A model generated the notes under the pieces. That model was not told where the DNA came from. It saw only the letters and a list, made by a program, of their open reading frames with translations, and ran no database searches. Of a DNA stretch of 64,000 nt, positions 29,041 to 57,439 are shown piece by piece. The stretch lies in NCBI GenBank assembly GCA_009886125.1, contig VFJK01000031.1, forward strand, positions 1,466 through 65,465, written 5' to 3'. Origin of the DNA: Geobacter sp. (GTDB taxonomy: Bacteria > Desulfobacterota > Desulfuromonadia > Geobacterales > DSM-12255). The translations under genes and the position numbers were made by a program. Within the stretch, counting starts at the first letter, position 1. Each line of letters begins with the position of its first letter.

Positions 29041-29616
29041 ATGCTCAACTCTCTTTTGCTCAGACGATTGCTCGGCGGGATTCTGGTTGTTGCCCTGCTT
29101 GCTGTTGTAGCGGTGACAGTCAGTTTTTTCGTTGAGAACACTAGGAGAGAAAAGCAGCCTTCTCCCCGTCATCCTGCTGCTGATGTCGGGTTAAAAGCGA
29201 TACACTTTACCGAAAGTGATGCTGACAGAAAAAAATGGGAACTTTTTGCGGAAAGTGGAGAGTATGACAAGGCAGCTGAAAAGACCACTCTTGCAACTAT
29301 ACGTTTTATTGTAGAAAGCGATCAGAAAGGGCCTGTGACAGTATCAGCACAGCATGGAGAGTATTTCCACGCTTCCAGGATACTGATCCTCAAAGGGAAT
29401 GTCGTCGCAAAAACAGAAGACGGGGCATTATTCGAGTCGAATGGAGTAACCTACAGCACAAAAAACAGGATCTTCAGCACCAAAGAGCACGTCAGGTATG
29501 TGGATAAGGGTCTTGCCGTCGAAGGAACAGGTATGGATTTCACGATTGAAGGATTCAGGGCAACAATCCATAGCAAGGTTTCTGCTACTCTCTACCCCGG
29601 CAAGAGGGGACAATGA
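29041..29616 (+). CDS. lptC: LPS export protein LptC
   Basis: N-terminal TM anchor plus an OstA-like beta-jellyroll pattern. Sits before lptA/lptB. Confidence 0.75.
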   Translation: MLNSLLLRRLLGGILVVALLAVVAVTVSFFVENTRREKQPSPRHPAADVGLKAIHFTESDADRKKWELFAESGEYDKAAEKTTLATIRFIVESDQKGPVTVSAQHGEYFHASRILILKGNVVAKTEDGALFESNGVTYSTKNRIFSTKEHVRYVDKGLAVEGTGMDFTIEGFRATIHSKVSATLYPGKRGQ

Positions 29617-30125
29617 TTCGTAACTGCTCATTATTCCTATTGTTCTTCTGTGCATTTTCATTTCAGGTTTTTGCTGAGGGGAATCTTCCTGTTTCGCGGC
29701 GGAGCGAGCCCATCACGATCAAATCAGATTCGCTGGTGACTGACAATGACCGGAAGATGGCTACATTCTCCGGGAATGTCGCTGCCAGGCAAGGGGACCT
29801 TACCATATACGCTGACAGGTTTGTTGTCGTCTATTCCTCTGTTGGCAATGAGATCAACACAGCTGAGGTCTTCGGAAATGTTCGTATCTTGCAGGGCCCG
29901 AGAAGGGCTCAGGCTGAACACGGAGTATATGACGCAAAGAGTTCTGTAATCGTCCTGGATGGAAATCCCAAGGTTTTTCAGAACAGTGACACTATCTCAG
30001 GCAAGATCATAACCTACTATCTCGATCAGGATCGAAGCGAAGTCACTTCCGGTTCCGGTAACAGGGTTGAGGCTGTTATATATCCGCAGGGCAAGGGTTC
30101 TGATGGTCGTTCAAAAAAGCCATAA
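29613..30125 (+). CDS. lptA: LPS transport periplasmic protein LptA
   Basis: Signal peptide; OstA_N pattern (PITIKSDSL..., F.GNV...QGDL.I.AD). Confidence 0.85.
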
Positions 30126-30843
30126 CACCTTGAGCGCACGGGGGCTGAAGAAGTCTTTCGGCGGCAGGACTGTTGTAAACGGCATCGACATCGATCTTGA
30201 AGCAGGAGAGGTCGCAGGTCTACTCGGGCCGAACGGAGCCGGCAAGACCACAACGTTCTACATGGTGGTAGGCCTTTGCAAGCCGGATAGCGGCGAGATC
30301 ATGATGGGGGGGGAGTCGATAACCCGACTGCCGGTCTATATGAGGGCTAGGTACGGTCTCAGTTATCTGCCCCAGGAGCCATCAGTTTTCAGGCGCCTTA
30401 CGGTTGAAGAGAATCTGCTTGCAATCCTTGAGACGGTAGAGCCGACAAGGCAGTTGCAAAGGCAGAGGGCTGATGAGCTTTTAAGTGAGTTCAGGATAAC
30501 TCATATAGCAGGGAGTAAGGGGTATGCCCTTTCCGGAGGCGAGCGGAGAAGGGTTGAAATCGCACGAGCGTTAACGACAAAGCCCCGATTTATTCTTCTT
30601 GATGAGCCTTTTGCCGGTATCGACCCGATTGCGGTAATCGATATCCAGAACATAATCGCAGAACTGAAGGCGAAAAACATAGGTATACTTATCTCAGACC
30701 ATAATGTGCGTGAAACACTCGGTGTCTGTGATAAGGCTTATATTGTGAACGCAGGAGAGATCCTCGAGTGCGGGACTCCGGAGCAGATAGCCAACAGCAG
30801 AAAAGCGAGGGAGATCTATCTCGGTGACAAGTTCAGACTTTAG
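30103..30843 (+). CDS. lptB: LPS export ABC ATPase LptB
   Basis: Start trimmed to the ATG at 30103. Walker A (GPNGAGKTT), signature (LSGGERRR), Walker B (ILLDEP). Confidence 0.95.
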
Positions 30844-39234: not shown

Positions 39235-39945
39235 TTAATCTTTGTCCAGAGCCCTTCTGCTGAACCGGTAACCGACACCTCTCACTGTCTGAAAAAATGA
39301 AGGATTCGTCGGATCAGATTCGAAATATTTCCTGAACCTGACGATAAAGTTGTCAAGAGTCCTTGTCTCGACTTCGGTTGAATACCCCCAGACCCTTTCC
39401 AGTAACTCACTTCGACTGACGGCTGCTCCTTCCTTTTGAAAAAGAAGAGTAAGCATTCGGACTTCAAGGTCGGTCAGGTCAATCTCCCCTTGTGCAGTTC
39501 TCGCTCGGTACGAAAGCAGATATACTTCGTTTTCGCCAAAACGGTAGCCTTCTTCAACAGGTTCAGGCAGATACCAGGAAGAGCGGCGCAGCATCCCTTT
39601 TACCCGGAGCAGAAACTCATTCAAGCTGAACGGCTTGGTAAGGTAGTCATCAGCCCCGCTGGCAAGACCGGTGACCCTGTCACCCTCCTCTGAGCGGGCT
39701 GTAAGCATAAGTATGGGGACTCTTGAATCGGATTCTCTTACGCTTTTGCATAATGTAAATCCGTCCATGCCAGGGAGCATCACATCAAGGATGATAAGTG
39801 CGAATCGGTCATAAAAAAGCCTTTCCAGAGCCGCCTCTCCGGTTTCTACATGGCTGACACGGCAACCCTCCTGCTCAAGATTGAAGCATATCCCTCGCGC
39901 CAGATGGATTTCATCCTCTACGAGCAGAATATTCGGTTTGTCCAT
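39235..39945 (-). CDS. OmpR/PhoB-family response regulator
   Basis: Receiver (ILLVEDE, IILDVMLPGMDG, K in LTKPF) plus a winged-helix C-domain (VRGVGYRF). Confidence 0.9.
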   Translation of the reverse strand: MDKPNILLVEDEIHLARGICFNLEQEGCRVSHVETGEAALERLFYDRFALIILDVMLPGMDGFTLCKSVRESDSRVPILMLTARSEEGDRVTGLASGADDYLTKPFSLNEFLLRVKGMLRRSSWYLPEPVEEGYRFGENEVYLLSYRARTAQGEIDLTDLEVRMLTLLFQKEGAAVSRSELLERVWGYSTEVETRTLDNFIVRFRKYFESDPTNPSFFQTVRGVGYRFSRRALDKD

Positions 39946-40889
39946 TAGTTTGCTCCAGCCATCGGCAGGGAGATGGTAAAACGACTTCCACCCCCCGTAT
40001 TTGCACGCTCGACATAGATCTTCCCGTTATGCCTTTTTACAATTGACTTCACAATGTACAGTCCGAGACCTGTCCCTCTGATCGTTTCTCCAGTCTCTCT
40101 GACACGGTAGAACATTTTGAAGATGTTTTTCAGCTCATCAGGGTCAATACCTCTTCCGTTATCAGATACTGAAAGAGTGCAGTTTCTCCCGTTTTTTCTC
40201 AGTTGCACATGAACTTCCGGGGATGCCGGGCTGTAAAGAAAAGCATTTTCAAGCAGATTGCGGAGCACCATTTCCATCCCTTCGCTATCGATTTTTGCAG
40301 ATATTCCTTGCGCAATTTCTCCGGTAAGACGGCTCTCTTCAGGAAGGTGCTGACCAAACTCCTGAATGAATCTGTCAACAAAGTTGCTTAAGTCGACGAG
40401 TGTCAGAGCGGCACCTAAAGGACGTTGTTCAAGTTTTGCAGCCATCAGGAAATTACTTATGAGACTGTTAAGGCGCTCAGTATCTGCGAGCATTGTATCA
40501 AGAAAGCGCTCCATTTTTTCCGGTGAAGGGTTACGGAGCCTTATTGTCTCGAGATGAAGCCGGATTGAGGCGAGAGGAGATTTGAGTTCGTGCGTTATCT
40601 GGGAGATGAAGGTTTTCTGCTCCGCATAAAGACGTGACTGGCGTTTCCAGTATATAAAAATGATGTAAAGGCCTACTAATACGAGTGCAAGCATGATTAT
40701 GCCGCCTGCAAGCACAGGCCAGTTGATATGCTGCGGAACGAGATCCGGACGATATTTCTCAGCAATTGATCTCAGCTCATAATGTCGTCCCATGAACCAG
40801 AGAATCCAAAGGACGAGAAGTCCGATCCAGATAATCTGAACAGCAATAAGGGTGATTATCGGGTTTAACAGGTATTTAAGTCGACGCAT
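39945..40889 (-). CDS. Histidine kinase with two TM helices and a very short external loop
   Basis: H-box (ITHELKSPLASIRL) and G-box (GTGLGLYIVKSIV). About 25 aa separate the TM helices. There is a 1-nt TAATG overlap with the response regulator. Confidence 0.88.
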   Translation of the reverse strand: MRRLKYLLNPIITLIAVQIIWIGLLVLWILWFMGRHYELRSIAEKYRPDLVPQHINWPVLAGGIIMLALVLVGLYIIFIYWKRQSRLYAEQKTFISQITHELKSPLASIRLHLETIRLRNPSPEKMERFLDTMLADTERLNSLISNFLMAAKLEQRPLGAALTLVDLSNFVDRFIQEFGQHLPEESRLTGEIAQGISAKIDSEGMEMVLRNLLENAFLYSPASPEVHVQLRKNGRNCTLSVSDNGRGIDPDELKNIFKMFYRVRETGETIRGTGLGLYIVKSIVKRHNGKIYVERANTGGGSRFTISLPMAGAN

Positions 40890-41531
40890 GCTTAATGCTT
40901 TAGCATTCGGGAAGTGCTGTTAGCAATCAATTTCGATCATGAGTGACGTTAATTATGAAATGCTGAATTAAAAAATCTTGTTATTGTCGCCAATTAATAC
41001 TATTTTACTCGAATGCAACTGAAACAGACACAATCTACCGCGTTGCGACTCATATCGGTGAACAGAAAAACAGCCATCTTTTTTCTGATAACTCTGACCA
41101 TGACACTGATCACTCTTGGCGTCCGTCTGCCATCTCCAACCGGGATCTCATCCAATTCAGGAAAGCCGAAGCCTCGTCCAAGAGCAGTAATCCAGAACCA
41201 GATTAAAACCTGCAAGCAGATATTAAAGAGCTTTTCAGAGTCGTCAGTATCCATCCCGGAAAACTCTCTCACACTTTTCACATATGAAACAGGCAGGGAA
41301 GTTACTCTGTTTTCCGTTAGTCAACACTCCTCCGTTCCACAATTCAGTGTATCCTCACGAGCACCTCCTTCAATTTTATTTATTTCCTGAATAATCTGAT
41401 CTGTTGTAAGGGGCAAAGCTGTCTGAGATTGATCTGCAGTACCTGCCTTCAACAATAGAATTTCAGTATCCCCTTTAAACCATGCATTCCGGGTTGTCCG
41501 GATAGCCTTATCCAGTTTGAGGAGAGGAGAT

Positions 41532-42536
41532 ATGAAACCTCTTTCGATAGTCATTCCGGTCTACAATGCTGAAAAGACCATTGAATCGCTTTGCAATACC
41601 CTTATAAGCCTCTATTCGGATATGTACGGACTCGAGATTGTGCTTGTGAACGATAACAGCAACGATAGTTCTGATCTTATCTGCAGAAGACTGTATCAGG
41701 AGCAGCCTGAGAGAATCACTTATCTGCGGCTCTCACGGAATTTCGGAGAACATTGTGCCGTCATGGCCGGATTGAATCATGCCTCAGGTGATCTCTGTGT
41801 AATCATGGACGATGATTTCCAGAATCCTCCAGATGAGATAATAAGACTTCTGGAGGAGATGGAAAAGGGGTATGACGTGGTCTACACCCAGTACACTATA
41901 AAGCGCGACAGTTTTTTCCGCAATCTCGGCAGTATTGCCAACGACAAAATGGCTAACCTTATTCTGCGAAAGCCGGCGGATCTATACCTTTCCAGCTTTA
42001 AGATCATAAACAGATTTCTGCTGGGCGAAATCATCAAATACCATGGACCCGACCCGTATATTGACGCCATTATCCTGCGAGCTACAGATAATATCGGCAA
42101 GGTGCCGGTTCGCCATGACGAGAGGAAAACCGGCAGTTCAGGCTATACCATGAAAAAACTGATTTCCCTCTGGGGAAACATGGTGGTCAGCTGTTCGCTG
42201 ATCCCCCTGCGGATTATCGGTATCGTAGGGTTCATCCTGACTGTTTTCGGTGCATACATGGGATTTGATGCTTTAATAGACTGGATCATTCCTACCATGG
42301 AAGACCCGACTGAGTATGAAACCCTGACAGCAGTCACCGCCTTCTTCCGGGGGTTCCAGATGCTTGCAATCAGCGTGGTTGGCGAGTATGTCGGTCGAAT
42401 ATACCTCTCTTTGAATGCAGACCCGCAGTTTGTAATCAGAGAGAAGTTCTCTTCTCCCGGAAAGGGCCAGTTTAAATCAATTCAAAAGGTACACACATAT
42501 AATGACAAAGAGAAATGTAGCAGCACAACGGCATAA
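41532..42536 (+). CDS. GT2 polyprenyl-phosphate glycosyltransferase (ArnC/GtrB/DPM1-like)
   Basis: Start at ATG 41532, behind GGAGAGGAGA. Motifs: SIVIPVYNAEKTI, VNDNSND, IMDDDFQNPP. Two C-terminal TM helices. Confidence 0.85.
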   Translation: MKPLSIVIPVYNAEKTIESLCNTLISLYSDMYGLEIVLVNDNSNDSSDLICRRLYQEQPERITYLRLSRNFGEHCAVMAGLNHASGDLCVIMDDDFQNPPDEIIRLLEEMEKGYDVVYTQYTIKRDSFFRNLGSIANDKMANLILRKPADLYLSSFKIINRFLLGEIIKYHGPDPYIDAIILRATDNIGKVPVRHDERKTGSSGYTMKKLISLWGNMVVSCSLIPLRIIGIVGFILTVFGAYMGFDALIDWIIPTMEDPTEYETLTAVTAFFRGFQMLAISVVGEYVGRIYLSLNADPQFVIREKFSSPGKGQFKSIQKVHTYNDKEKCSSTTA

Positions 42537-43977
42537 AGCATCTGCGACAAAATCCGTGGCGGGTTTCCTGGCAGGGTTGTCTCCCGAAGACTGCCGTCTT
42601 GTTTTCCGCTCTCGTACAGTAAAGTCCTCGCTTCACTCTGACCGATATCTTGACAGGTGGTTGAAATCACGACTTCTTCACCCGGATCTTAAAGTAACCA
42701 CTATTTCATTGAATGACATGAACGGGTGGAGAGTAAATCCCGAAAAGGGGGATATCTCACATGAATCCGGCAGGTTCTTTTCAATTATCGGGGTGGATGT
42801 ACGTCAAAGATCCAAAGACAAAGAGTTCTTTTGGGATCAGCCGGTTATCGATCAGCCTGAAGTAGGGATTCTCGGCATTCTTGCAAAGAGAATAAAAGGT
42901 GTACTCCACTTTTGTCTTCACGCTAAAGAGGAACCGGGGAATATCAACGCAATACAGCTCTCTCCAACAGTGCAGGCGACCTACAGTAACTATACCAGGG
43001 TACATGGCGGCGCTTTGCCTAAGTTCATAAACTATTTTCTTGATCAGACAATTGGCCGTATCATATATGCAAAGCTCCAGACAGAAGATGGCGGCAGATT
43101 TCTGTACAAGTCCAACAGAAACATGATTGTTGAGGCCTTTGATCCTGAACTTGATACCCTTCCCGAAGGTTTTATCTGGCTGACCCTTCGCCAGATCGGG
43201 CGGATCTTGAAAAACGACAATACGGTTCATGCCTGTACCAGGAGCATCCTTTCTGCACTGATTTTACCGGAAAATGTGTGCGGCACTGTCAAGAGTCCGT
43301 CCACCGGACCCGGAGCGCGAAGAGCAGAAAGCAGCAGAGCCGGAGAGATTTTCCAGTGGCTGGACAACAAGAAGGCGTCAACCCACTTTCTGGTGAAACG
43401 GATAGACCTTAACTCCCTGAAAGATTGGGGGATGGATAGAGACGGATCGTTTTCTCACGAAGAGGGGCGTTTCTTCAGAGTTGTAGGTATTGATGTAGAG
43501 TCAAGCGAGCGAGAGGTGTCAATCTGGAATCAGCCTATTTTAGACAACCCCGGAAAAGGTGTTATCGGGCTTCTGTTAAAGGTTGAAAATGGTACGAGAT
43601 ATTTCCTGATGCAGGCAAAAGCCGAGTTCGGGAATAGAGGAATAATCCAGATAGGGCCTACAGTTCAATTTACTCCGGGGAACTACATAGGGAACAAAAA
43701 ACTTCCAAAGCCGTTTCTTTTTGATGAGTTCTGTAATCCGGAATATCACCGATTGAAGTTCGACTCACTTCAGAGCGAGGAGGGTGCACGCTTTTACAAG
43801 GAAGAACATCTTCACAGGATTCTTCTGCTGGGAGATGGTGAAGCGATTCAGATACCGCAAGAGTATATGTGGATATCTGAATCGGATCTGCATTTTTTTC
43901 TCAATATCGGTGAGATGGTAAACTCCTGTGCGAGAAGTGTCGTCTCGATTTTGTTGTGCCAGGAGCTCGCAAAATGA
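42502..43977 (+). CDS. NDP-hexose 2,3-dehydratase (EvaA/TylX3 family, two-lobed)
   Basis: An internal duplication is visible: HESGRFFSIIGVDV...WDQPVIDQPEVGILGIL...PTVQATYSNY versus HEEGRFFRVVGIDV...WNQPILDNPGKGVIGLL...PTVQFTPGNY. Confidence 0.75.
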   Translation: MTKRNVAAQRHKASATKSVAGFLAGLSPEDCRLVFRSRTVKSSLHSDRYLDRWLKSRLLHPDLKVTTISLNDMNGWRVNPEKGDISHESGRFFSIIGVDVRQRSKDKEFFWDQPVIDQPEVGILGILAKRIKGVLHFCLHAKEEPGNINAIQLSPTVQATYSNYTRVHGGALPKFINYFLDQTIGRIIYAKLQTEDGGRFLYKSNRNMIVEAFDPELDTLPEGFIWLTLRQIGRILKNDNTVHACTRSILSALILPENVCGTVKSPSTGPGARRAESSRAGEIFQWLDNKKASTHFLVKRIDLNSLKDWGMDRDGSFSHEEGRFFRVVGIDVESSEREVSIWNQPILDNPGKGVIGLLLKVENGTRYFLMQAKAEFGNRGIIQIGPTVQFTPGNYIGNKKLPKPFLFDEFCNPEYHRLKFDSLQSEEGARFYKEEHLHRILLLGDGEAIQIPQEYMWISESDLHFFLNIGEMVNSCARSVVSILLCQELAK

Positions 43978-45702
43978 AAAGAAAAAGAGATAGCTCCTCA
44001 AAAGATAGGTATACCTCACCCTCCGGAGAGGAGATAAAGGTTCAAACAGTTCAGTCTCCTGATGATTCGCCGGTTCTACCCTTGTCAGAAATCTTATTGA
44101 GGCACAAGGATTCGATTCTTGTCGTACTGTTGTTTTTAGCCGCTCTTGCCGTACGCATATACTCACTCAAGTTTTTTCATGTAATTCCGACTGATGGCAC
44201 AAGCTATGTAGAAACGGCACGATCTGTCGGGCGAGGAGAGATCGATGGTATAGCGGTCTACGGGTTTTACCCGATATTGATCTGGGTTATGAACTTCTTC
44301 ATCAGCGATGGTGAACTCGCTGGCCGACTGGTTTCGGTTCTGTTCGGCTCAATGCTGGTTATCCCGTTATATCTGCTGGGGAGAGATATCTTCTCTAGGA
44401 ATATCGCGCTGTCTGCCTGCCTTGTAGCCGTGGTCTGGCCTCCTCTCGTGGGTTCATCATGCGAAGTTATTACACAGTCCACTCATACGACGCTTCAGTT
44501 GACTGGTGTTTATTTTGTGTGGCGTGCCTTCAAAGAGTACAGAATTTCGGATGGTTGCCTTGCCGGATTTTTCTTCGGGCTCACTTACCTCACTCGACCT
44601 GAAGGGTTGCTCCTCTTTTTTATGACTCCGCTTGCCTTCTTCTGTTTCCGTTTAAAGGAGACCGTTAAAAAGCCGGCGTTTCTTTGGGCTTATTCTGGCT
44701 CTTTTTTCATTTTTTTTTGCCATCAACCTGTTACTTGTTCATCATGTGACCGGTGAGTGGCAGATTTCTGCAAAGACAGATAGCGCGCTGAACGATGCCC
44801 TGAGTTATTATCTTAAAATTCCTGATCTTAATTACATCCCAGGTTACGAACCCAAAGGTTATCTTGATATCCTGAGAGATCACCCGGAATTCATCTGGAA
44901 GAATTCGATTCTTAACATTAAAAAGGCGTGGGAAACGATACTGCCGGTTCCACTCTGGATATTTTTCATGACAGGTTTTTTCTCAGGAGGTTTTTCAAGG
45001 GAGAGAAACATCGTCAGGTTTTTTCTGCTTTCTACAGCGGTTCCTATTGCCGTCTTAGTTGTATTCTACTACATCAATTCCGGATACATCGAGGCGTATC
45101 TGCCGGTCATTTTCCTGATTACGGCCTCAGGTTTTATTACGGCTGAAACATGGTTGAAGGGAAAAATTGCCGGTTATTTAAGTGCCGAACAGAACATTGT
45201 TATTGGAAGGGTACGATTCCTGATTGCCGCTTCGCTTGTTTATGCAGTGATACTTATTGTGCCTCAGGCAATAAGGAAGGATATACCTGATTCAGAATAC
45301 GACCCTGTTGCTGATAACTACAGGCGTGCCGAGAAGCATGTCGGGCTGCTGCTGAAAGAATCGCTTCCCCCAGGAAAGATAATGACCCGTTGGGCAAGGA
45401 TTGCCTTTTACGCCGAACGGGAGTGGGTGAATATCCCTGCGGCTACTACTTATGAGGAGATAATCCTGCTGGCCAGGAAGAGCGGCGTGCGCTTTTTAAT
45501 TGCTGACGGTACGCTTTACAGTATGCGTCCCATGCTCGGAAAGGAGCTTTTTGAACCTCTAAGTGATGGGCAGCAGCCTTACGGGAAATTCTTTCATAAC
45601 GATCCGAATTACAGGGTGAAGGGGCTGCGGCCATTCATGCTATATACGGATCCCAAAAGTATGGGTGTGGTGGTTTATGAAATTGACCAAGAGTCCGGCT
45701 GA
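43974..45702 (+). pseudogene. ArnT/PMT_2-like GT-C membrane glycosyltransferase, interrupted by a +1 frameshift at T-runs
   Basis: Tracked ORFs 43956..44756 and 44746..45702 join into one ~575-aa polytopic protein if a single T is removed at 44702-44718 (...SFFIFFAINLLLVHHVTGEWQ...). The ATG at 43974 overlaps the upstream stop (ATGA). Confidence 0.75.
44702..44718 (+). repeat. Homopolymer tracts T6 (44702-44707) and T9 (44710-44718) at the frame switch
   Basis: Read directly: cTTTTTTcaTTTTTTTTTgcc. Both frames are open only between 44656 and 44756. Confidence 0.9.
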
Positions 45703-46696
45703 AGTGGAAGCACTGGTTTTGACCGCTGCTCCTGTGCGGGTCGGCGTTCTGGGTTGCTCGGATATCGCAAGGAGAAAATTCATCCCGGCGCTTGAAAATT
45801 GCTGTAATGCCACTTTTGCCGCTGTATCAAGTCGCAGTCGGGAAAAAGCTGCAGAGCTATTGCCGGGAATACACTGTCCTATCCTTACTCCTGACGAACT
45901 TCTCCAGGACAGTACTATTGATCTGGTCTATCTCTCCTTACCGAATCATCTTCATGAAGAGTGGTCGATGCGGACTCTGGATGCGGGCAAGCATCTTATC
46001 TGTGAAAAGCCTCTCTCCACTTCACTTGCATCGGCAGAAAAGATTCTTGCCTGCGCTGCAAGGAATGATCGGCTGATTTATGAAAACCAGATGTTTCTGT
46101 TCCATCCCCAACATGAAGCAGTAAGATCGCTGATAGGGTCCGGAAGGATAGGGAGGTTAATATCTCTACGGGCTTTTTTCGGGTTTCCGCTTCCCGGAAA
46201 GGGCGATTTCAGGCTCGATCCGGATCAGGGTGGAGGCGCTTTTCACGATCTGGCGCGTTATCCGCTCGGGATCGCAGTCCATCTGCTGAAAGGGACGCTT
46301 CAGGGCTTCAGGGGCCATTCTTCCTGGCATGACGGGCTCAATAATGCAGTAATCGGGACCGCGTGTACAGATGCAGACGAGCTGTTCAGCTTTTCGATAG
46401 GCTTTGGCCAGCAGTATGAATCACTCTACGAAGTTATCGGTGAATCCGGAAAAATAAGGCTTGAGCGGGCCTTTACAACTCCTGCTGATTATTCGAACAG
46501 GATTATTTTTGCTGAGGGGCTCAAAGTCACAGAGATAGCAGTGGCGCCTGCCGATCATTTCCAGCTGATGATAGAGAGTATCTCTGACATAATCCAGTCC
46601 GGAGCCGACTACTCGTTTCTTAACCGCAGGGCGGCGAAGATTGCGCGCTTTGCAGATGCCATGGAGAGGGGCTGTATAAAACATGAGTATGCATAG
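45677..46696 (+). CDS. Gfo/Idh/MocA-family NAD(P) oxidoreductase (candidate sugar ketoreductase)
   Basis: Rossmann N-terminus (VRVGVLGCSDIARRKFIPAL) and an EKPL motif (ICEKPLS). The start is uncertain (ATG 45677 or GTG 45704). Confidence 0.8.
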   Translation: MKLTKSPAEVEALVLTAAPVRVGVLGCSDIARRKFIPALENCCNATFAAVSSRSREKAAELLPGIHCPILTPDELLQDSTIDLVYLSLPNHLHEEWSMRTLDAGKHLICEKPLSTSLASAEKILACAARNDRLIYENQMFLFHPQHEAVRSLIGSGRIGRLISLRAFFGFPLPGKGDFRLDPDQGGGAFHDLARYPLGIAVHLLKGTLQGFRGHSSWHDGLNNAVIGTACTDADELFSFSIGFGQQYESLYEVIGESGKIRLERAFTTPADYSNRIIFAEGLKVTEIAVAPADHFQLMIESISDIIQSGADYSFLNRRAAKIARFADAMERGCIKHEYA

Positions 46697-47831
46697 TGAC
46701 CATAATTCGATCATTCGCCATGAACCGGTAAAGTACTGGGACTACCTGCCTGAGTACACGCGCCATAAGGCAAATATCCTGAGAATTACAGACGAGGTTT
46801 TTTCCTCCGGCCGCGTCATTCTCGGAAGCCGTGTCGAGACGTTTGAACGGAATTTTGCTGCTTTCTGCGGGGCGGCTTTCGGAATCGGGGTGAACTCCTG
46901 TACCGATGCACTGTTCCTTGCTCTGAAGGCGCTTGATATCGGGGCAGGGGATGAAGTGATCACCGTCTCAAATACAGCTGTCCCGACGGTCGCAGCCATA
47001 AGAGCGAGCGGTGCTCTTCCGGTTTTTGTGGATGTCGAGAGTGACACGTTCCTTATGGATCCGGCATTGCTAGAAGATGCCGTTACCGGGAATACCCGCT
47101 GTATCCTCCCGGTTCATTTATGCGGGCAGGCTGCTTCCATGGAGCCGATTCAGGAGATAGCTTCCAGAAGAGGCCTTTCAGTGATCGAAGACTGTGCCCA
47201 GGCTGCCGGAGCAACGTATCAGGGGCAGAAGGTCGGCAGCATCGGAGACGTCGGCGCTTTTTCATTCTATCCTACAAAAATACTCGGAACTTTCGGCGAT
47301 GCCGGTATGCTGACGACCTCATCCGCGGATATGGCAGGCAGATTGAAACGTCTCAGGTTTTATGGCATGGAGGGAGAGTATTACTCCGAAGAAGAGGGGT
47401 ACAACTCCCGGATCGATGAGCTTCATGCGGCTCTGCTTGATTTCAGGCTGCAGTGGCTTGAGGAGGAGGTCTCACGCAGAAAAGCGATTGCCGACTTGTA
47501 TTCAGAGGGGTTGCAAGGGGTTGGCGATATTTCTCTGCCGGCAATCCGTTCTGACAGAGATCACCGATACTATTTATTCACAATCAGAACCGCCTTCAGG
47601 GATCAGCTTAAACAGTATCTTGCAGAGAACCTCATAGAGACCAGAATAAATTATCCGACCCCGATCCACCTGATGCGCGGCTATACTTTCCTCGGCTATT
47701 CAGCTGGCTCCCTGCCGGTAACCGAGAAGCTTGCCGGAGAGATCCTCTCGCTGCCACTGTATGGTGCGCTTCCGCTGTCTCACGTAGAGCTGGTCATAGA
47801 GCGGATCCGCTCGTTTTTCGCCACGAACTGA
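46683..47831 (+). CDS. DegT/DnrJ/EryC1-family PLP-dependent sugar aminotransferase
   Basis: FERNFAAFCG..., DCAQAAGA, and FSFYPTKILG (PLP lysine). Confidence 0.88.
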   Translation: MSMHSDHNSIIRHEPVKYWDYLPEYTRHKANILRITDEVFSSGRVILGSRVETFERNFAAFCGAAFGIGVNSCTDALFLALKALDIGAGDEVITVSNTAVPTVAAIRASGALPVFVDVESDTFLMDPALLEDAVTGNTRCILPVHLCGQAASMEPIQEIASRRGLSVIEDCAQAAGATYQGQKVGSIGDVGAFSFYPTKILGTFGDAGMLTTSSADMAGRLKRLRFYGMEGEYYSEEEGYNSRIDELHAALLDFRLQWLEEEVSRRKAIADLYSEGLQGVGDISLPAIRSDRDHRYYLFTIRTAFRDQLKQYLAENLIETRINYPTPIHLMRGYTFLGYSAGSLPVTEKLAGEILSLPLYGALPLSHVELVIERIRSFFATN

Positions 47832-47837
47832 AAACTC

Positions 47838-48602
47838 ATGAACCAGCATGAATACCGGCAGATGTATCAGGTTGAGGATTTTCACTGGTGGTATGTTTCT
47901 CTCCATGAACTGATCGTATCCGTTGTCTCAAAGGCGCGCTCCGGAACAGAAGAGTTACGGATTCTTGATGCCGGGTGCGGAACGGGGCGACTTATCCAGA
48001 TTCTCGAAGCTTTCGGCATCGTGTCCGGTTGTGATATTTCGTACGATGCACTGGACTGTTGCCGGCAGCGAGGTCTGACCGGGGTGTTCAAGGCCGATCT
48101 CAACAATGCGGTTTTCCCTGCTGTCCACTATGACGTGATCACCTCTATAGATACCCTTTATCACAACGCTGTCGAGGATGAAAAAGTCATCCTCGCACGA
48201 TTTCATGATGCGCTCAAACCTGGCGGGTTGGTGATAATAAACCTGGTCGCGCATGAATTCCTGCGCAGCACCCACGATATGGCTGTGCATACCAGAAAGC
48301 GTTATACCCGGAGAGAGGTCGTCAACCTGCTTGAGGAGAGCGGTTTTGTCGTCCAGATGGCGACGTACAGGTTGGGGCTGCTTTTTCCTCTGATTGCTTC
48401 ATACAGGCTGCTTCGCAGATTGTTCAATTGCGAATCTGACGCAGAACAGGTAACTTCAGATGTCCATCTTCCGAACAAGTTCATTAACCGGTTACTCCTC
48501 AGCCTGTCCAGAGTCGAGAACCGGTTTATCCTCAAAGCACCCATTCCTGTCGGTACATCAGTCTTCGCTGTCGGAAAGCGTCCGCTATCCGGTCCCTCCT
48601 GA
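47838..48602 (+). CDS. Class I SAM-dependent methyltransferase
   Basis: ILDAGCGTGRL motif I; EDFHWWY N-terminal motif. Confidence 0.8.
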   Translation: MNQHEYRQMYQVEDFHWWYVSLHELIVSVVSKARSGTEELRILDAGCGTGRLIQILEAFGIVSGCDISYDALDCCRQRGLTGVFKADLNNAVFPAVHYDVITSIDTLYHNAVEDEKVILARFHDALKPGGLVIINLVAHEFLRSTHDMAVHTRKRYTRREVVNLLEESGFVVQMATYRLGLLFPLIASYRLLRRLFNCESDAEQVTSDVHLPNKFINRLLLSLSRVENRFILKAPIPVGTSVFAVGKRPLSGPS

Positions 48603-48794: not shown

Positions 48795-50450
48795 ATGCGA
48801 AGTGACATGATAAAAAAGGGGCTTGAAAGGACTCCGCACCGGGCCCTCCTCAAAGGCACAGGAATGCCGGACAGCGCGTTCGAGAAACCTTTTATCGGTG
48901 TCGCCACCAGTTTTACCGATCTCATCCCCGGTCATGTAGGGATGCGCGATCTGGAACGTTTCATCGAGAAGGGTGTTCATTCCGGTGGCGGATACTCCCT
49001 GTTCTTCGGCATTCCGGGCGTCTGCGACGGCATTGCCATGGGGCACAAGGGGATGCACTATTCCCTTCCTACACGCGAACTGATCGCTGATATGGTGGAG
49101 TCGGTTGCGGAGGCCCATAGACTGGACGGTCTCGTGCTGCTCACCAACTGCGACAAGATCACTCCCGGTATGCTGATGGCGGCTGCACGGCTTGATATCC
49201 CCTGTATTGTTGTCACAGCCGGCCCGATGATGAGCGGACGCGGCGAGGCCGGGAGAAAGTATTCTTTCGTGACCGATACTTTCGAGGCGATGGCCCGTTA
49301 CAAGGCCGGTGTCATTGACGCAAAGGAACTCCAGGTCTGTGAAGACAACGCCTGTCCGGGCATGGGTTCCTGCCAGGGACTTTTTACCGCCAATACCATG
49401 GCGATTCTGACTGAGACTCTGGGAATGAGCCTGCCGCGCTGCGGCACAGCGCTTGCCGTGTCAGCCCTCAAGCGCAGGATCGCGTTTGCCTCGGGTGAGA
49501 AGATCGTCGAACTGGTAGAGAAAAATATAACTCCTCGCAGCATTATGACCAGGGCAGCATTCGAGAATGCCATAAGGGTCGATCTGGCTCTAGGTGGCTC
49601 ATCCAATACCGTCCTGCATCTGCTGGCAATTGCCCGCGACGCCGGGGTGGAACTGCCGCTGGAGACTTTTGACATCCTTGCCAAGGAGACTCCTCAGCTT
49701 GCCTCCATGAATCCTAGCGGCGAGCATTTCATGGAGGATCTTGACGCTGCCGGAGGGGTGGCAGGAGTTCTTAAACAGCTCGGCGAAAAGATCAAGGATA
49801 ATCCGACCGTTTTCGGGCTCTCCACGCTCCAGCTTGCGGCAAGTATTGAAAATGTCGATGAGACGGTTATCCGTCCGCTTGATAATCCGGTAAAACCGGA
49901 AGGAGGTATCGCTGTCCTCTTCGGCAATCTTGCTCCGAAGGGGGCGGTCGTCAAGCAGTCCGGAGTTTCGGCTCCCATGATGAAGTTCGAGGGAACGGCC
50001 CGCTGCTTCGATTCGGAAGAGCTGGCCATGGCAGCGATAATGGAGGGGCGTATCGTCTCCGGAGATGTGGTCGTCATCCGCTATGAAGGACCGAAGGGTG
50101 GCCCCGGCATGAGAGAGATGCTTGCTCCGACTGCTGCCATCATGGGGATGGGACTGGGCGATTCGGTTGCTCTGGTAACAGACGGAAGATTTTCCGGAGG
50201 GACCCGCGGGCCCTGCATCGGCCATATCTCCCCTGAAGCAGCCGAAGGCGGTCCGATAGCCCTGGTGAAAGAGGGTGACCGGATTCTTCTCGATATCCCG
50301 AACAGGAAGCTCGAACTTCTGGTCAGCCCCTCAGATCTTGATGAGCGCTGGGCTAAGTGGACTCGGCCGGAGCCGAAGATCAAGGGTGGATGGCTGGCGA
50401 GGTATGCGAAGGTGGTGACGTCGGCGCACACCGGGGCTATCACGGAGTAG
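48795..50450 (+). CDS. ilvD: Dihydroxy-acid dehydratase
   Basis: [13 protein letters not shown]; CPGMGSCQG; RFSGGT. Confidence 0.96.
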
Positions 50451-50571: not shown

Positions 50572-52272
50572 ATGAAAATGAGTGGAGCAAGAATACTTTT
50601 TGAGTGTCTGAAAAAGGAGGGGGTCGACCTTGTGTTCGGCTATCCCGGCGGCACGGTCATAAATATTTACGACGAGCTGTACAATTTCAAGGGGATCAAG
50701 CATATCCTCCCCCGTCACGAGCAGGCCGGGACACATGCTGCAGACGGCTATGCCCGGGCGACCGGCAAGGTGGGGGTGATGATCGCCACTTCAGGCCCCG
50801 GGGCAACCAATACAGTAACAGGTATTGCCACGGCGTACATGGATTCGATCCCCATGGTTATCATTACCGGTCAGGTGCCTACGGCTCTGATTGGTAACGA
50901 CGCTTTTCAGGAGGTCGATATCGTCGGTGTTACCCGCCCCTGTACCAAACACAGTTTTCTGGTAAAGGATGTGAAGGATCTGGCGACAATACTGAAAAAG
51001 GCCTTCTATATTGCCCGGACAGGTCGACCCGGTCCGGTTCTGGTCGATATTCCGAAAGATGTACAGATTGCTCAGACGGAATTCCATTACCCCGAGACTA
51101 TCGAACTGCGCAGCTACAAGCCGACGGTTGAAGGGCATCCGAAACAGATCGAACGTGCGGTGGAGATGCTCCTGGCCGCGAAGAAGCCGGTTGTTTATGT
51201 CGGCGGCGGCGTTGTCCTCGGCAATGCTGCAGAGGAGCTGACCGCATTTTGCAGATTACTCGGCGTGCCGGTAACAACAACGCTCATGGGCCTGGGAGCT
51301 TTCCCGGAAAACGATCCGAACTCGCTGCGGATGCTCGGAATGCACGGCACCTATTACGCCAATATGGCCATGACCGACACCGATGTCTTGCTGGCAGTCG
51401 GTGCCCGCTTCGATGACCGGGTAACCGGCAAGCTCTCTACCTTTGCACCCCACGCCAAGATTATCCATATCGACGTCGATCCGACCTCGATCAAGAAGAA
51501 CGTTCGCGTCGATCTGCCGATCGTCGGCGATGTCAAGGGTGTTCTGGTCAGGATGATCAAGGTGGCAAAGGCCAATGCCGACAAGGTTGCGAACCTCAAG
51601 GAAGCCATGAAACCCTGGCTGGAGGAGATCGCCGGGTGGAAGGCCAAGCATCCGCTGTCGTACAAGCATGCTGCGACCGTCATAAAACCGCAGTATGTCA
51701 TCGAGAAACTGCGCGAGCTTTCCAATCCCGACGCGATCGTTTCTACGGATGTCGGTCAGCATCAAATGTGGACTGCCCAGTTTTTCGGGTTCACCAAGCC
51801 GCGGACCCTGCTAAGTTCCGGCGGTCTCGGGACCATGGGGTACGGTCTCCCGGCGGCCATGGGGGCGCAGGCTGCTTTCCCCGAGCGCCAGGTCATTACC
51901 ATCTGTGGTGACGGCGGCGTACAGATGAACATCCAGGAGATGGCAACACTGGTCCAGTACCGTCTTCCGGTAAAAATAGTCATTCTCAACAACGGTTTTC
52001 TCGGTATGGTGCGTCAGTGGCAGGAACTCTTTTTCGACAAGCGCTACTCGCAGACCTGTCTGGACCTGCCCATAGATTTCATCAAGCTGGCCGAAGCCTA
52101 TGGCGCCAAGGGTTTTCAGGCAACCAAACCCGAAGATGTCGAAGCGGTAATCAGAAAAGGCTTTGCAACTGAAGGGCCGGTAATCATGGAGTTCAAGGTC
52201 GCCCGCGAGGAGAAGGTCCTGCCAATGGTGCCCGGCGGTGCGTCGCTGAACGAGATGGTTTTGAACGCGTAA
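50572..52272 (+). CDS. ilvB: Acetolactate synthase large subunit
   Basis: ThDP enzyme motifs (GYPGG, GPGATN, GGLGTMGYGLPAAMG...GDGG). Confidence 0.95.
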   Translation: MKMSGARILFECLKKEGVDLVFGYPGGTVINIYDELYNFKGIKHILPRHEQAGTHAADGYARATGKVGVMIATSGPGATNTVTGIATAYMDSIPMVIITGQVPTALIGNDAFQEVDIVGVTRPCTKHSFLVKDVKDLATILKKAFYIARTGRPGPVLVDIPKDVQIAQTEFHYPETIELRSYKPTVEGHPKQIERAVEMLLAAKKPVVYVGGGVVLGNAAEELTAFCRLLGVPVTTTLMGLGAFPENDPNSLRMLGMHGTYYANMAMTDTDVLLAVGARFDDRVTGKLSTFAPHAKIIHIDVDPTSIKKNVRVDLPIVGDVKGVLVRMIKVAKANADKVANLKEAMKPWLEEIAGWKAKHPLSYKHAATVIKPQYVIEKLRELSNPDAIVSTDVGQHQMWTAQFFGFTKPRTLLSSGGLGTMGYGLPAAMGAQAAFPERQVITICGDGGVQMNIQEMATLVQYRLPVKIVILNNGFLGMVRQWQELFFDKRYSQTCLDLPIDFIKLAEAYGAKGFQATKPEDVEAVIRKGFATEGPVIMEFKVAREEKVLPMVPGGASLNEMVLNA

Positions 52273-52282
52273 ACGATATCCT

Positions 52283-52347
52283 GTAGGGGCGGACGGCGTC
52301 CGCCCCATCGGGCGCATGCAATGTGGGCGCATGCCATGCGCCCCTAC
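52283..52347. repeat. GTAGGGGCG...CGCCCCTAC REP-like element, family B, copy 2 (between ilvB and ilvN)
   Basis: GTAGGGGCGGACGGCGTCCGCCCC...GGGCGCATGCCATGCGCCCCTAC. Confidence 0.8.
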
Positions 52348-52371
52348 ATAGGTTTTTAATGGAGATTTCCC

Positions 52372-52860
52372 ATGAAACATACAATTTCAGTTCTGGTTGA
52401 AAACGAGTTCGGTGTGCTTTCCCGGGTGGCTGCACTTTTCTCCGGGCGCGGCTTCAACATCGATTCTCTGTCGGTTGCACCGACCAATGACGAGTGTATC
52501 TCCCGGATGACGCTGGTGACCAGCGGCGACGAACAGGTTTTGGAGCAGATTTCCAAGCAGCTCAATAAATTGATAGATGTTATCAAGGTGATTGATTTCA
52601 CCGATGGTAGTGGCATAGAACGGGAGATGGCTTTAATCAAGGTGACGGCGGAAGATGAGCGCAGGGCCGAGGTCCTCAGGATTGTCGATATCTTCCGGGC
52701 AAAAATCATCGATGTAACGCAGAAATCCTATACGATTGAGGCAACCGGATCGCCTTTAAAGATCGATGCCATTTTGGAGCTGCTTCGTCCCCTTGGACTC
52801 AAGGAGCTGGTACGAACGGGTGCTGTTGCGATTGGACGTGGAGCCAAAGTCTGGAATTAA
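52372..52860 (+). CDS. ilvN: Acetolactate synthase small (regulatory) subunit
   Basis: ACT domain start HTISVLVENEFGVLSRVAALFSGRGFNI. Confidence 0.93.
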   Translation: MKHTISVLVENEFGVLSRVAALFSGRGFNIDSLSVAPTNDECISRMTLVTSGDEQVLEQISKQLNKLIDVIKVIDFTDGSGIEREMALIKVTAEDERRAEVLRIVDIFRAKIIDVTQKSYTIEATGSPLKIDAILELLRPLGLKELVRTGAVAIGRGAKVWN

Positions 52861-52907
52861 TTCAAGTGCCAGTGATTATCTGAGCAGAATTGACATGGAG
52901 GAAGTAA

Positions 52908-53918
<1,011 letters not shown>

Positions 53919-53923
53919 TATTG

Positions 53924-54586
53924 ATGCGTAATCAGAATACACCTATTGCTATGGAGGGGCTCCCCTTTGTTGCCGGTTTTTCCGGGGGGGCTCTTCTTTT
54001 CTATCTCTTTTCAGAGAATCTGCACTCTCAATTACTGCTTGCGTTATCAGTTTTTGCACTGCTGCTGGCAGGGTTTTCGCTGTATTTTTTCCGTAACCCG
54101 CATAGGAGAATCCCGGCAGTAGACGGTGCTGTTGTCTCTCCGGCTGACGGTGTCATCATTTACCTCGGAGATGCCGTAGAAGAGCATCTTGGTGTGCAGA
54201 TGACGAAGATAAGCATCTTCATGTCGGTATTTAGCGTCCATATTAATCGAGCACCGGTTAGTGGCAGGATTATCGATAATTTTTATGTGCAGGGCAAATT
54301 TCTTGATGTAAGAGACGAACGTGCTACATTTGAGAACGAAAGAAACGGCCTGGTAGTAGAGACCCTGAAAGGTGTTATAATCGTAGTGGTGCAAGTGGCC
54401 GGACTTATTGCCCGGCGGATCGTCTGTTATCCTATCGTCGGAGAGATGATAGTTCAAGGGGAGCGTTACGGACTGATCCGTTTCGGGTCGCGACTCGACG
54501 TATACGTGCCGAAGGGATCGGATATACAGGTCAAGCTTGGCCAGAAAACGATCGCCGGAGAGACAGTCCTGGGGAAACTTCAATGA
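53924..54586 (+). CDS. psd: Phosphatidylserine decarboxylase (short, archaeal/Psd-related type)
   Basis: FGSRLD self-cleavage G-S motif near the C-terminus; N-terminal TM helices. Confidence 0.82.
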   Translation: MRNQNTPIAMEGLPFVAGFSGGALLFYLFSENLHSQLLLALSVFALLLAGFSLYFFRNPHRRIPAVDGAVVSPADGVIIYLGDAVEEHLGVQMTKISIFMSVFSVHINRAPVSGRIIDNFYVQGKFLDVRDERATFENERNGLVVETLKGVIIVVVQVAGLIARRIVCYPIVGEMIVQGERYGLIRFGSRLDVYVPKGSDIQVKLGQKTIAGETVLGKLQ

Positions 54587-55380
54587 CAGAACAACAGTCA
54601 AGCCGCTCTGAAAGCATGCGTAAGGGGATTTACATACTTCCTAATCTCTTTACGACGGGAAGCCTTTTTGCCGGTTTTTACGGGATGGTTTCCGGGGTAA
54701 ACGGTGATTACCGGACCGCTGCGATCTGGATACTGGTTTCTGCAGTTTTTGACGGCCTTGACGGTAAAGTAGCAAGAGCTACCGGTACCACAAGCAAGTT
54801 CGGAGTTGAATACGATTCTCTTGCGGACCTGGTAGCTTTTGGTGTTGCTCCCGGGCTGCTGATGTACTTATGGGCACTGAAACCTTTTGGCAGGCTGGGT
54901 TGGCTTGCTGCCTTCCTTTTCGTGGTGTGCGGCGCTCTTCGCCTGGCCCGGTTCAATGTTCAGGTTGACACGGTTGAAAGCAAGCGCTTTATCGGCTTGC
55001 CTATACCTGCTGCAGCCAGCATGGTATCGGCGACAATACTGTTTTTCCATCACATGGGGTGGCCGAGCTCGTATAAGAAGCTTGCTATCCTGATTCTGAT
55101 CTATCTTCTTGCTTTTCTGATGGTCTCAAATGTCAAATATTATTCATTCAAAGATCCTGAAATCATAAAGAAGCAGCCTTTCGGTTTTCTGGTGCTGCTG
55201 GTACTCCTTCTCATAGTTATTGCAGCAGAACCGGCGATCATGATGTTTGCTCTTTTCTGTTGTTACCTTCTTTCCGGTCCGATAACCTATCTTGTCTCAA
55301 TGCCAAGGCGCAGAAGACTGGAAAAGGCTATTCATAAAGGGCATGAATCGGTTTCAGATGGTGGTGACAAGAGTGAGTAG
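54583..55380 (+). CDS. pssA: CDP-diacylglycerol-serine O-phosphatidyltransferase
   Basis: CDP-alcohol motif DGLDGKVAR...G...DSLADLV. Confidence 0.88.
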   Translation: MTEQQSSRSESMRKGIYILPNLFTTGSLFAGFYGMVSGVNGDYRTAAIWILVSAVFDGLDGKVARATGTTSKFGVEYDSLADLVAFGVAPGLLMYLWALKPFGRLGWLAAFLFVVCGALRLARFNVQVDTVESKRFIGLPIPAAASMVSATILFFHHMGWPSSYKKLAILILIYLLAFLMVSNVKYYSFKDPEIIKKQPFGFLVLLVLLLIVIAAEPAIMMFALFCCYLLSGPITYLVSMPRRRRLEKAIHKGHESVSDGGDKSE

Positions 55381-55885: not shown

Positions 55886-57439
55886 ATGGCAAAAAAAGAC
55901 GCATTAAAAACTATCAAGATCTTTGACACAACGCTGCGGGATGGTGAGCAGGCGCCAGGCAACAGCATGAATATCGAGGAGAAGCTCCGGATAGCCAAAC
56001 AGCTGGAAAAACTCAAGGTTGATGTTATTGAGGCAGGTTTTCCGATTGCTTCCGATGGCGATTTCGAAGCGGTAAAAAGAATTGCCAAGGAAATCAGGGG
56101 GCCGGAAATAGCCGGGCTCTGCCGTTCAAGCGAAAAAGACATCGACAGAGCCTGGGAGGCGCTTCAATATGCCGGAGAGCGTGGCAGGATTCATACTTTC
56201 ATAGCCACCTCTGACATTCATATGAAATACAAACTGAAAATGGAGCCTTCCAGGGTTCTCGAAGCTGCGGTTAAGGCGGTAAAACGGGCAAAGTCATTCA
56301 CCCCTAATGTTGAATTCTCCTGTGAAGATGCTGTGCGCACCAGACTCCCGTTTCTTGCCGAAGTAGTGGCGGCTGTTATTGACGCCGGTGCAACAACAGT
56401 AAATATTCCCGATACGGTCGGGTATACTATCCCGTTCGAGTACTTCAACATCATCAAATATCTCAAGGATAATGTTGCTAATATCGAGCAGGCTGTTATC
56501 TCAGTCCATTGTCATAATGATCTTGGCCTATCCGTTGCCAATTCGATCGCTGCCATCCAGGCAGGCGCCGGTCAAGTGGAGTGCACCATTAACGGCATCG
56601 GAGAGCGCGCCGGCAACTGTTCGCTTGAAGAGTTTGTCATGGCACTAAGAACCCGTCACGATATTCTGCCTTTCAGAACAAACGTGGTTACTGAACAGAT
56701 CATGCCGGCAAGTCGTCTCCTCTCTACCATTACCGGTATCATGGTCCAACCTAACAAGTCAGTTGTCGGGGCGAATGCTTTTGCGCATGAATCCGGGATT
56801 CATCAGCACGGGATGCTGATGGACAAGTCTACCTACGAAATCATGACCCCGGAATCGATTGGCCTGAAAACCAGCTCTCTGGTTCTGGGTAAGCACTCAG
56901 GTCGGCATGCGTTCAAGAAAAGGTTGGAAGAGCTCGGGTACGAACTGAATGATGCGGATCTGAACAAGGCATTCAACCGCTTTAAAACACTGGCCGATCT
57001 AAAGAAAGAGGTATTTGACGAAGACCTCGACGCAATCATGACGGAAGAGATAACGCGCGAAGAGGAGAAGTACAAGCTTGATCATATTACGGTGACCTGC
57101 GGCTCTTTTGCTGTTGCAACCGCTACAGTCCAGATGGAAATAGAGGGTAAACCTTTCAGGACCGCAGAACTTGGAGACGGCCCTGTCGATGCTACTCTGA
57201 AGGCGATTAAGAAGCTGACAAAGTGTAAGGCAAAGCTGCTCACGTATAATGTCGGAGCAATCACAAGCGGTACGGATGCTCAGGGTGAAGTGACAGTAAA
57301 GGTCGCCGAAGGAGACAGGACTGTTACGGGCAGGGGGTCTTCGACGGACATCATTGAAGCTTCTGCAAAGGCTTTTATAAATGCTCTGAACAGACTGGAT
57401 GTAATGAAGGAGAGATTCGAAGAGAGAAATGCTTTATAG
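55886..57439 (+). CDS. leuA: 2-isopropylmalate synthase
   Basis: IFDTTLRDGEQ; HCHNDLGL; C-terminal LeuA dimer/regulatory domain. Confidence 0.95.
   Translation: MAKKDALKTIKIFDTTLRDGEQAPGNSMNIEEKLRIAKQLEKLKVDVIEAGFPIASDGDFEAVKRIAKEIRGPEIAGLCRSSEKDIDRAWEALQYAGERGRIHTFIATSDIHMKYKLKMEPSRVLEAAVKAVKRAKSFTPNVEFSCEDAVRTRLPFLAEVVAAVIDAGATTVNIPDTVGYTIPFEYFNIIKYLKDNVANIEQAVISVHCHNDLGLSVANSIAAIQAGAGQVECTINGIGERAGNCSLEEFVMALRTRHDILPFRTNVVTEQIMPASRLLSTITGIMVQPNKSVVGANAFAHESGIHQHGMLMDKSTYEIMTPESIGLKTSSLVLGKHSGRHAFKKRLEELGYELNDADLNKAFNRFKTLADLKKEVFDEDLDAIMTEEITREEEKYKLDHITVTCGSFAVATATVQMEIEGKPFRTAELGDGPVDATLKAIKKLTKCKAKLLTYNVGAITSGTDAQGEVTVKVAEGDRTVTGRGSSTDIIEASAKAFINALNRLDVMKERFEERNAL

Follow-up and report, generated by a model that had tools for sequence, protein, structure and literature searches.

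What has happened to the glycosyltransferase gene that lies split in this stretch of Geobacter sp. DNA: has it just been broken, is it being switched, or has a base been miscounted? The stretch analyzed here (the window) comprises 64 kb of contig VFJK01000031.1. The third gene of a six-gene cluster (43974-45702, forward strand) is predicted to encode a GT-C glycosyltransferase and is divided between two open reading frames (ORFs) at a run of nine T residues. The preliminary description of this DNA had proposed a possible phase-variable switch. We consider it probable, by a modest measure, that a genuine and recent +1 T slippage in an in-frame T8 run has split a GT-C gene that is otherwise intact and under purifying selection. 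This is an ordinary kind of event.

Positions 44702-44718 of the forward strand read TTTTTTCATTTTTTTTT, composed of a T6 run (44702-44707), CA, and a T9 run (44710-44718). The T6 run is in frame as TCT TTT TTC (Ser-Phe-Phe) and is also found in relatives. The T9 run is the site of the +1 insertion, its in-frame state being T8, read as ATT TTT TTT (Ile-Phe-Phe). The first reading frame (frame A, forward strand, 43974-44756) encodes an N-terminal fragment whose length is 260 aa with ATG 43974 as the start, or 266 aa with GTG 43956, and the Logan gene call is likewise 260 aa. With the tract as given, frame A does end early, at a premature TGA (44754-44756), and its product terminates as ...SFFIFFCHQPVTCSSCDR*. 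This product is authentic to approximately residue 248 and is followed by an out-of-frame tail of 12 aa (CHQPVTCSSCDR). The +1 frame (frame B) stays open between 44656 and 45702. Its coding sequence at 44719-45702 (forward strand) supplies the C-terminal 327 residues of the enzyme, and the mechanically called ORF B begins at GTG 44746 and ends at 45702 (318 aa). On the forward strand both frames are open between 44656 and 44756, bounded by the frame-B TAA at 44653-44655 and the frame-A TGA, which bears out the earlier observation that the tract lies within a 100-nt interval open in both frames.

Deletion of one T from the sequence joins the two frames through ...SFFIFFAINLLLVHHVTGEWQ..., and the repaired product from the ATG is 575 aa long (join context ...AYSGSFFIFFAINLLLVHHVTGEWQ...). 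Full-length protein results from T8 or T11 and not from T9, which stops at 44756, or T10. A change in the length of the run thus toggles the frame of a complete gene, the geometry of a contingency locus. Alignments of the repaired protein with 19, and then with 111, full-length homologues are gap-free across the join, which supports the proposal that the two ORFs encode the halves of a single GT-C glycosyltransferase. That a single T deletion restores an enzyme of normal length is similarly supported by the homologues, which are 550-575 aa long, and by the nearest relative, in which the run is T8 and in frame. No homopolymer in the window is longer than the T9 run, which is also the sole run of at least 9 nt there. 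By our own calculation approximately 0.7 such runs are expected by chance per 64 kb at 51% G+C, so the run is unremarkable in itself. What goes beyond chance is the coincidence of the sole frame break with the T9 run. An annotation of this locus should merge the two ORFs into a single gene with a frameshift flag instead of listing two proteins.

In Pfam, residues 101-248 of the repaired protein match PMT_2 (PF13231) with a score of 45.4 bits, where the cut-off is 26.1, and the same family is found in all close homologues. There are more than 100 homologues of 550-575 aa, at no more than 73-75% identity and nearly all from Geobacteraceae metagenome-assembled genomes or metagenomes. A profile search of PDB sequences, ArnT chains 5EZM and 5F15 included, returned nothing at E<=0.01, and the fold was therefore established by structure prediction. 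The AlphaFold2 model of the repaired protein, built from 112 sequences, has a predicted local distance difference test score of 93.5 and a predicted template modelling (TM) score of 0.91. It contains a multi-helix membrane module and a C-terminal soluble domain, as is characteristic of GT-C enzymes. The 45 best Foldseek matches to the model are all GT-C proteins (STT3, AglB, ArnT, PglB, DPY19 and ALG9), with E values from 1.7e-10 to 1e-5 and TM-scores of up to 0.60. STT3, AglB, ArnT and PglB matched at E values of 1e-10 to 1e-7, ArnT with TM-scores of 0.55-0.58. The conserved acidic residue in the first extracytoplasmic loop of GT-C enzymes has its counterpart in D74, which lies in a TDGT motif just past the first long helix (37-67), is invariant in the 112 sequences and may be catalytic. 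From the model and the family match, the split gene is predicted to encode a GT-C glycosyltransferase of the PMT_2 type. The earlier label "ArnT-like" is justified by fold and Pfam family (PMT_2, and STT3, AglB, ArnT and PglB in Foldseek) and does not extend to membership in ArnT by sequence. No ArnT model among the NCBIfam models matched the repaired protein at E<=1e-5, and its only NCBIfam match was to LA_3751/LA_3752, at 31 bits against a cut-off of 200. Identification of the gene as ArnT proper was rejected, as it has neither a match to an ArnT sequence model nor an Arn operon context.

The frameshift junction falls inside a long predicted helix (residues 234-259), in agreement with the earlier suggestion of a transmembrane-like join. 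The most conserved motif of the family, HHVTGEWQ(I/L)SAKTDSALNDALSYYL, is encoded in frame B just 3' of the junction and includes the invariant G260 and K267. The frame-B part of the gene encodes this motif, further helices and a C-terminal alpha/beta domain. Since the motif and the later helices lie downstream of the junction, the 260-aa product is without features that every homologue keeps: it retains D74 and loses this motif, every later helix and the C-terminal domain. This product would be expected to be inactive.

The closest full-length relative (P0121, on contig L019), found under the protein cluster of the 318-aa ORF, is intact and 575 aa long. L019 and the window share 82% DNA identity over 3.5 kb, and in a global alignment of these 3.5 kb the base in the run is the only internal indel. 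At the site, L019 reads TCT TTT TTC GTT TTT TTT GTC, that is, T6-CG-T8, in frame. The comparison of tract lengths among relatives that the preliminary description had called for thus gives T8 in L019 and no long run in 14 other relatives, which read GYT CTT TTT or are less T-rich. Since relatives at approximately 70-73% amino acid identity read GCT/GTT CTT TTT, the long run appears, from the alignment, to have arisen in the lineage pair of the window and L019 and not to have been selected across the family. A C-to-T change in the common ancestor of the two would have bridged T2 and T5 to make T8, and the window lineage would subsequently have gained one T. An inserted A combined with a G-to-T change has an equal alignment cost. 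We rejected this path because it would be mechanistically less likely than a G/A transition and a slip in the run.

The divergence between the window (42192-45704) and L019 is mosaic, with approximately 75% DNA identity over the 2,3-dehydratase gene (synonymous divergence, dS, of 1.13) and approximately 89% over the 3' two-thirds of the GT-C gene (dS 0.36). This pattern suggests either recombination or very different constraints within the cluster. A further contig (L020; ENA ERZ27251527, 582 bp) matches window positions 45272-45853 at 94% and is nearer than L019. It ends short of the T run; a closer relative thus exists in another sample.

The GT-C gene shows the marks of purifying selection. 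The ratio of nonsynonymous to synonymous divergence (dN/dS) against L019 is 0.21 overall, 0.25 upstream of the shift and 0.17 downstream of it. With five close outgroups, 24 amino acid changes are assigned to the window branch and 38 to the sister branch. Where the other 12 sequences do not vary, the window differs only by A84S, I362V and I456V, all conservative. No second lesion was found in the gene in the alignment with L019 and the homologues. A long-standing pseudogene, one of the alternatives raised initially, is therefore disfavoured by the lack of a second lesion, the low dN/dS and the absence of rate acceleration. Because there is no second lesion, the frameshift would be either very recent, or not real, or regularly reversed or bypassed.

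Short homologues were considered as instances of a recurrent frameshift at the run, and both candidates were rejected. One (P0079) is cut by the end of its contig. The other (P0058, on L023) has two nonsense codons elsewhere. L023 (nt 334-1872; JGI 3300021173) carries a 60%-identical GT-C homologue in the same gene context, with in-frame stops at nt 505 (TAG) and nt 550 (TAA) that replace the conserved Arg118 and Tyr133 positions. This appears to be an independent inactivation of the GT-C gene in another lineage, suggesting that its loss is tolerated in nature.

In the explanation that we favour, strand slippage would have turned T8 into T9, so that translation ends at 44756 and the transfer step would be off in the dominant genotype. 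Runs of 9 nt are mutationally unstable, making reversion possible from T9 to T8 or to T11, and transcriptional or ribosomal slippage may yield a little full-length protein. Reversion and leakiness are generic to such runs and are not evidence for an evolved switch. Some observations weigh against a real slippage event. The base count comes from the consensus of an apparently single sample, and both available assemblies probably derive from the same reads. As the longest run in the window, T9 is also the place most prone to a miscount. Finally, the lack of secondary decay fits an artefact, or a switch that is regularly re-activated, equally well.

The extra T could instead be a homopolymer miscount, in which case the gene would be intact, with T8, in the cells themselves. 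We consider this unlikely, and still to be taken seriously, given that the run closely follows the T6 run, that the extra T is the sole lesion in an otherwise perfectly conserved gene, and that both assemblies are 100% identical and apparently come from the same sequencing run. In the Logan assembly of SRR8670878, a contig of 13.9 kb matches the window over 6957 bp with 100% identity and likewise reads T9. Two different assemblers thus both give T9, and since the Logan contig carries it, an assembler-specific error is unlikely. A k-mer-based contig of 13.9 kb would also imply accurate short reads. Moreover, all 69 other runs of at least 6 nt inside ORFs keep the frame, including A8 at 12173, G8 at 30306 and A8 at 62820, so the consensus does not show a general tendency to homopolymer errors. 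A single further ORF overlap in the window looked suspicious, at 29041-30843 (forward strand), and was rejected as a second split gene; it consists of three normal genes, lptC, lptA and lptB, which overlap by 4 and 58 nt, and the G8 run (30306-30313) lies inside an undisrupted lptB. The switch of the preliminary description supposes that the T8/T9 run is maintained as a contingency locus, in which slipped-strand mispairing switches an envelope sugar modification and the sampled population is mostly OFF. The proposed benefit would be, for example, against phage or cationic stress. This we regard as rather unlikely. It draws on an 8-9-nt run placed within the coding region for a surface-modification enzyme, where a change in length toggles the frame; on the occurrence of ON (T8) and OFF (T9) states in two related lineages; and on an otherwise pristine gene under purifying selection, as expected of a regularly used ON state. 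Reversible homopolymer frameshifts outside classical contingency loci are also known, as in M. tuberculosis glpK (bioRxiv 10.1101/717272; PMC10334774). Against it, the run is absent in all relatives at or below 75% amino acid identity, and by our own estimate its retention between the window and L019 has a probability of approximately 0.37 by chance (proportion of synonymous differences ~0.28, dS 0.36). The conservation beyond chance in related genomes that a contingency locus would be expected to show is therefore not seen. Phe is often encoded by TTT here (359 TTT versus 451 TTC), and TTTTTT makes up 11 of the 55 Phe-Phe pairs, so such a run is unsurprising where a membrane helix rich in Phe and Ile is encoded. 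Within the window it is also the only run of its length in 64 kb. The T8 and T9 lineages, at 82% DNA identity, are different species and not clonal variants, and exact look-up in a collection of 15 billion proteins found neither the T8 (575 aa) nor the T11 (576 aa) allele of this strain. An exact-pattern scan of JGI metagenomes for T7-T11 variants of the site gave two matches, both unrelated; the JGI sample of L019 evidently lies outside that collection. Our literature search found no report of phase variation of homopolymeric tracts in ArnT. On this comparative evidence the phase-variable switch is a conjecture that we do not favour. More doubtful still is a working T8/T9 switch in an environmental metal-reducing member of the Geobacteraceae that would give heritable, reversible control of envelope amino-sugar modification by an Arn-like relay and 2,3-dehydratase cluster. 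Early termination in an operon of overlapping genes might also lower the expression of the downstream sugar-synthesis genes.

The remaining explanations take the T9 state as functional. In programmed recoding, T9 would be a site of transcriptional slippage or of +1 ribosomal frameshifting that routinely gives both the 260-aa and the full-length protein. Transcriptional slippage is significant from runs of nine A or T residues in many bacteria, and in Shigella mxiE a T run joins two ORFs (PMC1088944). The T9 run reaches this length (at least 9) at an ORF junction, as in mxiE and dnaX (PMC1088944), and UUU UUU U permits perfect +1 re-pairing of tRNA-Phe. However, the out-of-frame arrangement is not conserved, the closest and all other full-length orthologues being in frame. 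Rescue also requires the loss of one or the gain of two nucleotides in the RNA. Slippage in A/T runs consists mainly of +1 insertions, with deletions being rare (PMC5574713). The features of a prfB-type +1 frameshift are likewise missing beyond the slippery UUU U: there is no Shine-Dalgarno-like element upstream of the tract, the next codon UGC is common (136 UGC versus 107 UGU), the local RNA is without structure (z = -0.04) and the arrangement is not conserved. Low-level leakiness is plausible, and we consider programmed recoding very improbable. We give the least credence of all to a functional split gene, in which ORF B would re-initiate at GTG 44746 and the two halves would combine to form an active enzyme. 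This GTG is followed after 8 nt by the stop of ORF A (44754-44756), a geometry that could permit termination-reinitiation. However, no homologue is split in the same way, the short matches being contig-end fragments or the nonsense-mutated L023 gene. In addition, the break lies inside a predicted helix, of which ORF B would miss residues 249-257, and no ribosome-binding site precedes GTG 44746. A transcription terminator at the tract was also considered, formed by a weak hairpin (44686-44701) and the T-rich stretch, and was rejected because RNA folding neither forms it nor gives any excess stability (z = -0.04). Terminator-like patterns between 40800 and 49000 number 16, against 7.1 +/- 2.7 in shuffled sequence, an approximately two-fold excess that probably comes from T-rich membrane-protein coding sequence. 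One of these patterns adjoins the T6/T9 tract, with a hairpin that is not predicted to form.

The GT-C gene is embedded in a cluster of six tightly packed genes on the forward strand, whose ends overlap and whose order is the same in relatives (L013-L019). The cluster opens with a GT2 glycosyltransferase (41517-42536), which by NCBIfam is most similar to ArnC (undecaprenyl-phosphate aminoarabinose transferase), below cut-off, and also to PgfS. This is followed by a nucleoside diphosphate (NDP)-hexose 2,3-dehydratase (42502-43977), whose stop overlaps the start codon of the GT-C gene (ATGA). Downstream of the GT-C gene lie a Gfo/Idh/MocA oxidoreductase (from 45665 or 45677 to 46696), overlapping its end, a DegT/DnrJ/EryC1 aminotransferase (46683-47831) and an S-adenosylmethionine-dependent methyltransferase (47838-48602). 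For none of the six proteins did an NCBIfam equivalog model score at or above its cut-off. The cluster includes an ArnC-like GT2 and a DegT-type aminotransferase, and ArnA and ArnD were not found in it. By analogy, the cluster should build an amino sugar and load it onto polyprenyl phosphate via the ArnC-like GT2, and the GT-C enzyme should pass the sugar to a periplasmic or envelope acceptor, as in the Arn and Gtr systems. The domain content of the cluster (41517-48602) resembles an Arn-like lipid-carrier relay whose product should be a 2-deoxy amino sugar. Upstream and beside the cluster, a divergent pair on the reverse strand (39235-40889) encodes an OmpR-type response regulator and a histidine kinase, which may regulate the cluster. 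Further downstream is the sole Rfam match in the window, a T-box leader (RF00230; 55467-55797, forward strand; 110 bits against a gathering score of 93). It lies upstream of a 517-aa ORF (55886-57439) and is preceded by ilvD (48795-50450, named from its protein cluster) and four more ORFs (50572-55380).

Should the extra T be real, an envelope-glycosylation pathway that is conserved in the Geobacteraceae has just lost its last step in the dominant genotype of the sample, which would add a small data point on the turnover of surface structures in environmental bacteria. Together with the nonsense-mutated gene of L023, this would suggest that the modification is dispensable or sometimes costly. 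If reads showed heterogeneity in tract length, homopolymer phase variation would be extended to a free-living deltaproteobacterial lineage. The chemistry of the cluster, with a 2,3-dehydratase feeding an ArnC/GT-C relay, may reward study more than the frameshift.

Phase-variable glycosyltransferase, lipooligosaccharide and lipopolysaccharide genes with poly-G/C or poly-A/T tracts occur in Neisseria, Haemophilus, Campylobacter and Helicobacter. As in the gene studied here, the frame of a surface-glycan enzyme is set in these systems by the length of a homopolymer. The classical tracts are usually longer, are conserved within species and occur at many loci per genome in host-adapted bacteria, whereas the window run is 8-9 nt long, confined to one lineage pair and single in 64 kb of an environmental Geobacteraceae genome. 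The 7C tract of M. tuberculosis glpK is similar in that one base added to a homopolymer within the coding sequence cuts short an otherwise undamaged gene, a change that the same mechanism can reverse. Variation in the length of the glpK tract has been shown within and between clinical isolates and tied to phenotype (bioRxiv 10.1101/717272; PMC6667613; PMC10334774), whereas the window case is known from one consensus state per lineage. Shigella flexneri mxiE (a T run) and Thermus thermophilus dnaX (A9) resemble the window in having a 9-nt run at the junction of overlapping ORFs. Their out-of-frame arrangement is conserved and functional, whereas the orthologues of the window gene are in frame and rescue would need a disfavoured -1 or +2 change (PMC1088944). 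For the enzyme itself, the comparison is with the ArnT/ArnC pathway of aminoarabinose addition to lipid A (PDB 5EZM, 5F15). ArnT has the same GT-C fold as that predicted for the window enzyme, and the neighbours of the window gene, encoding an ArnC-like GT2 and a DegT/ArnB-like aminotransferase, suggest a sugar relay on polyprenyl phosphate. The window cluster differs from the Arn pathway in having a 2,3-dehydratase, an oxidoreductase and a methyltransferase in place of ArnA and ArnD.

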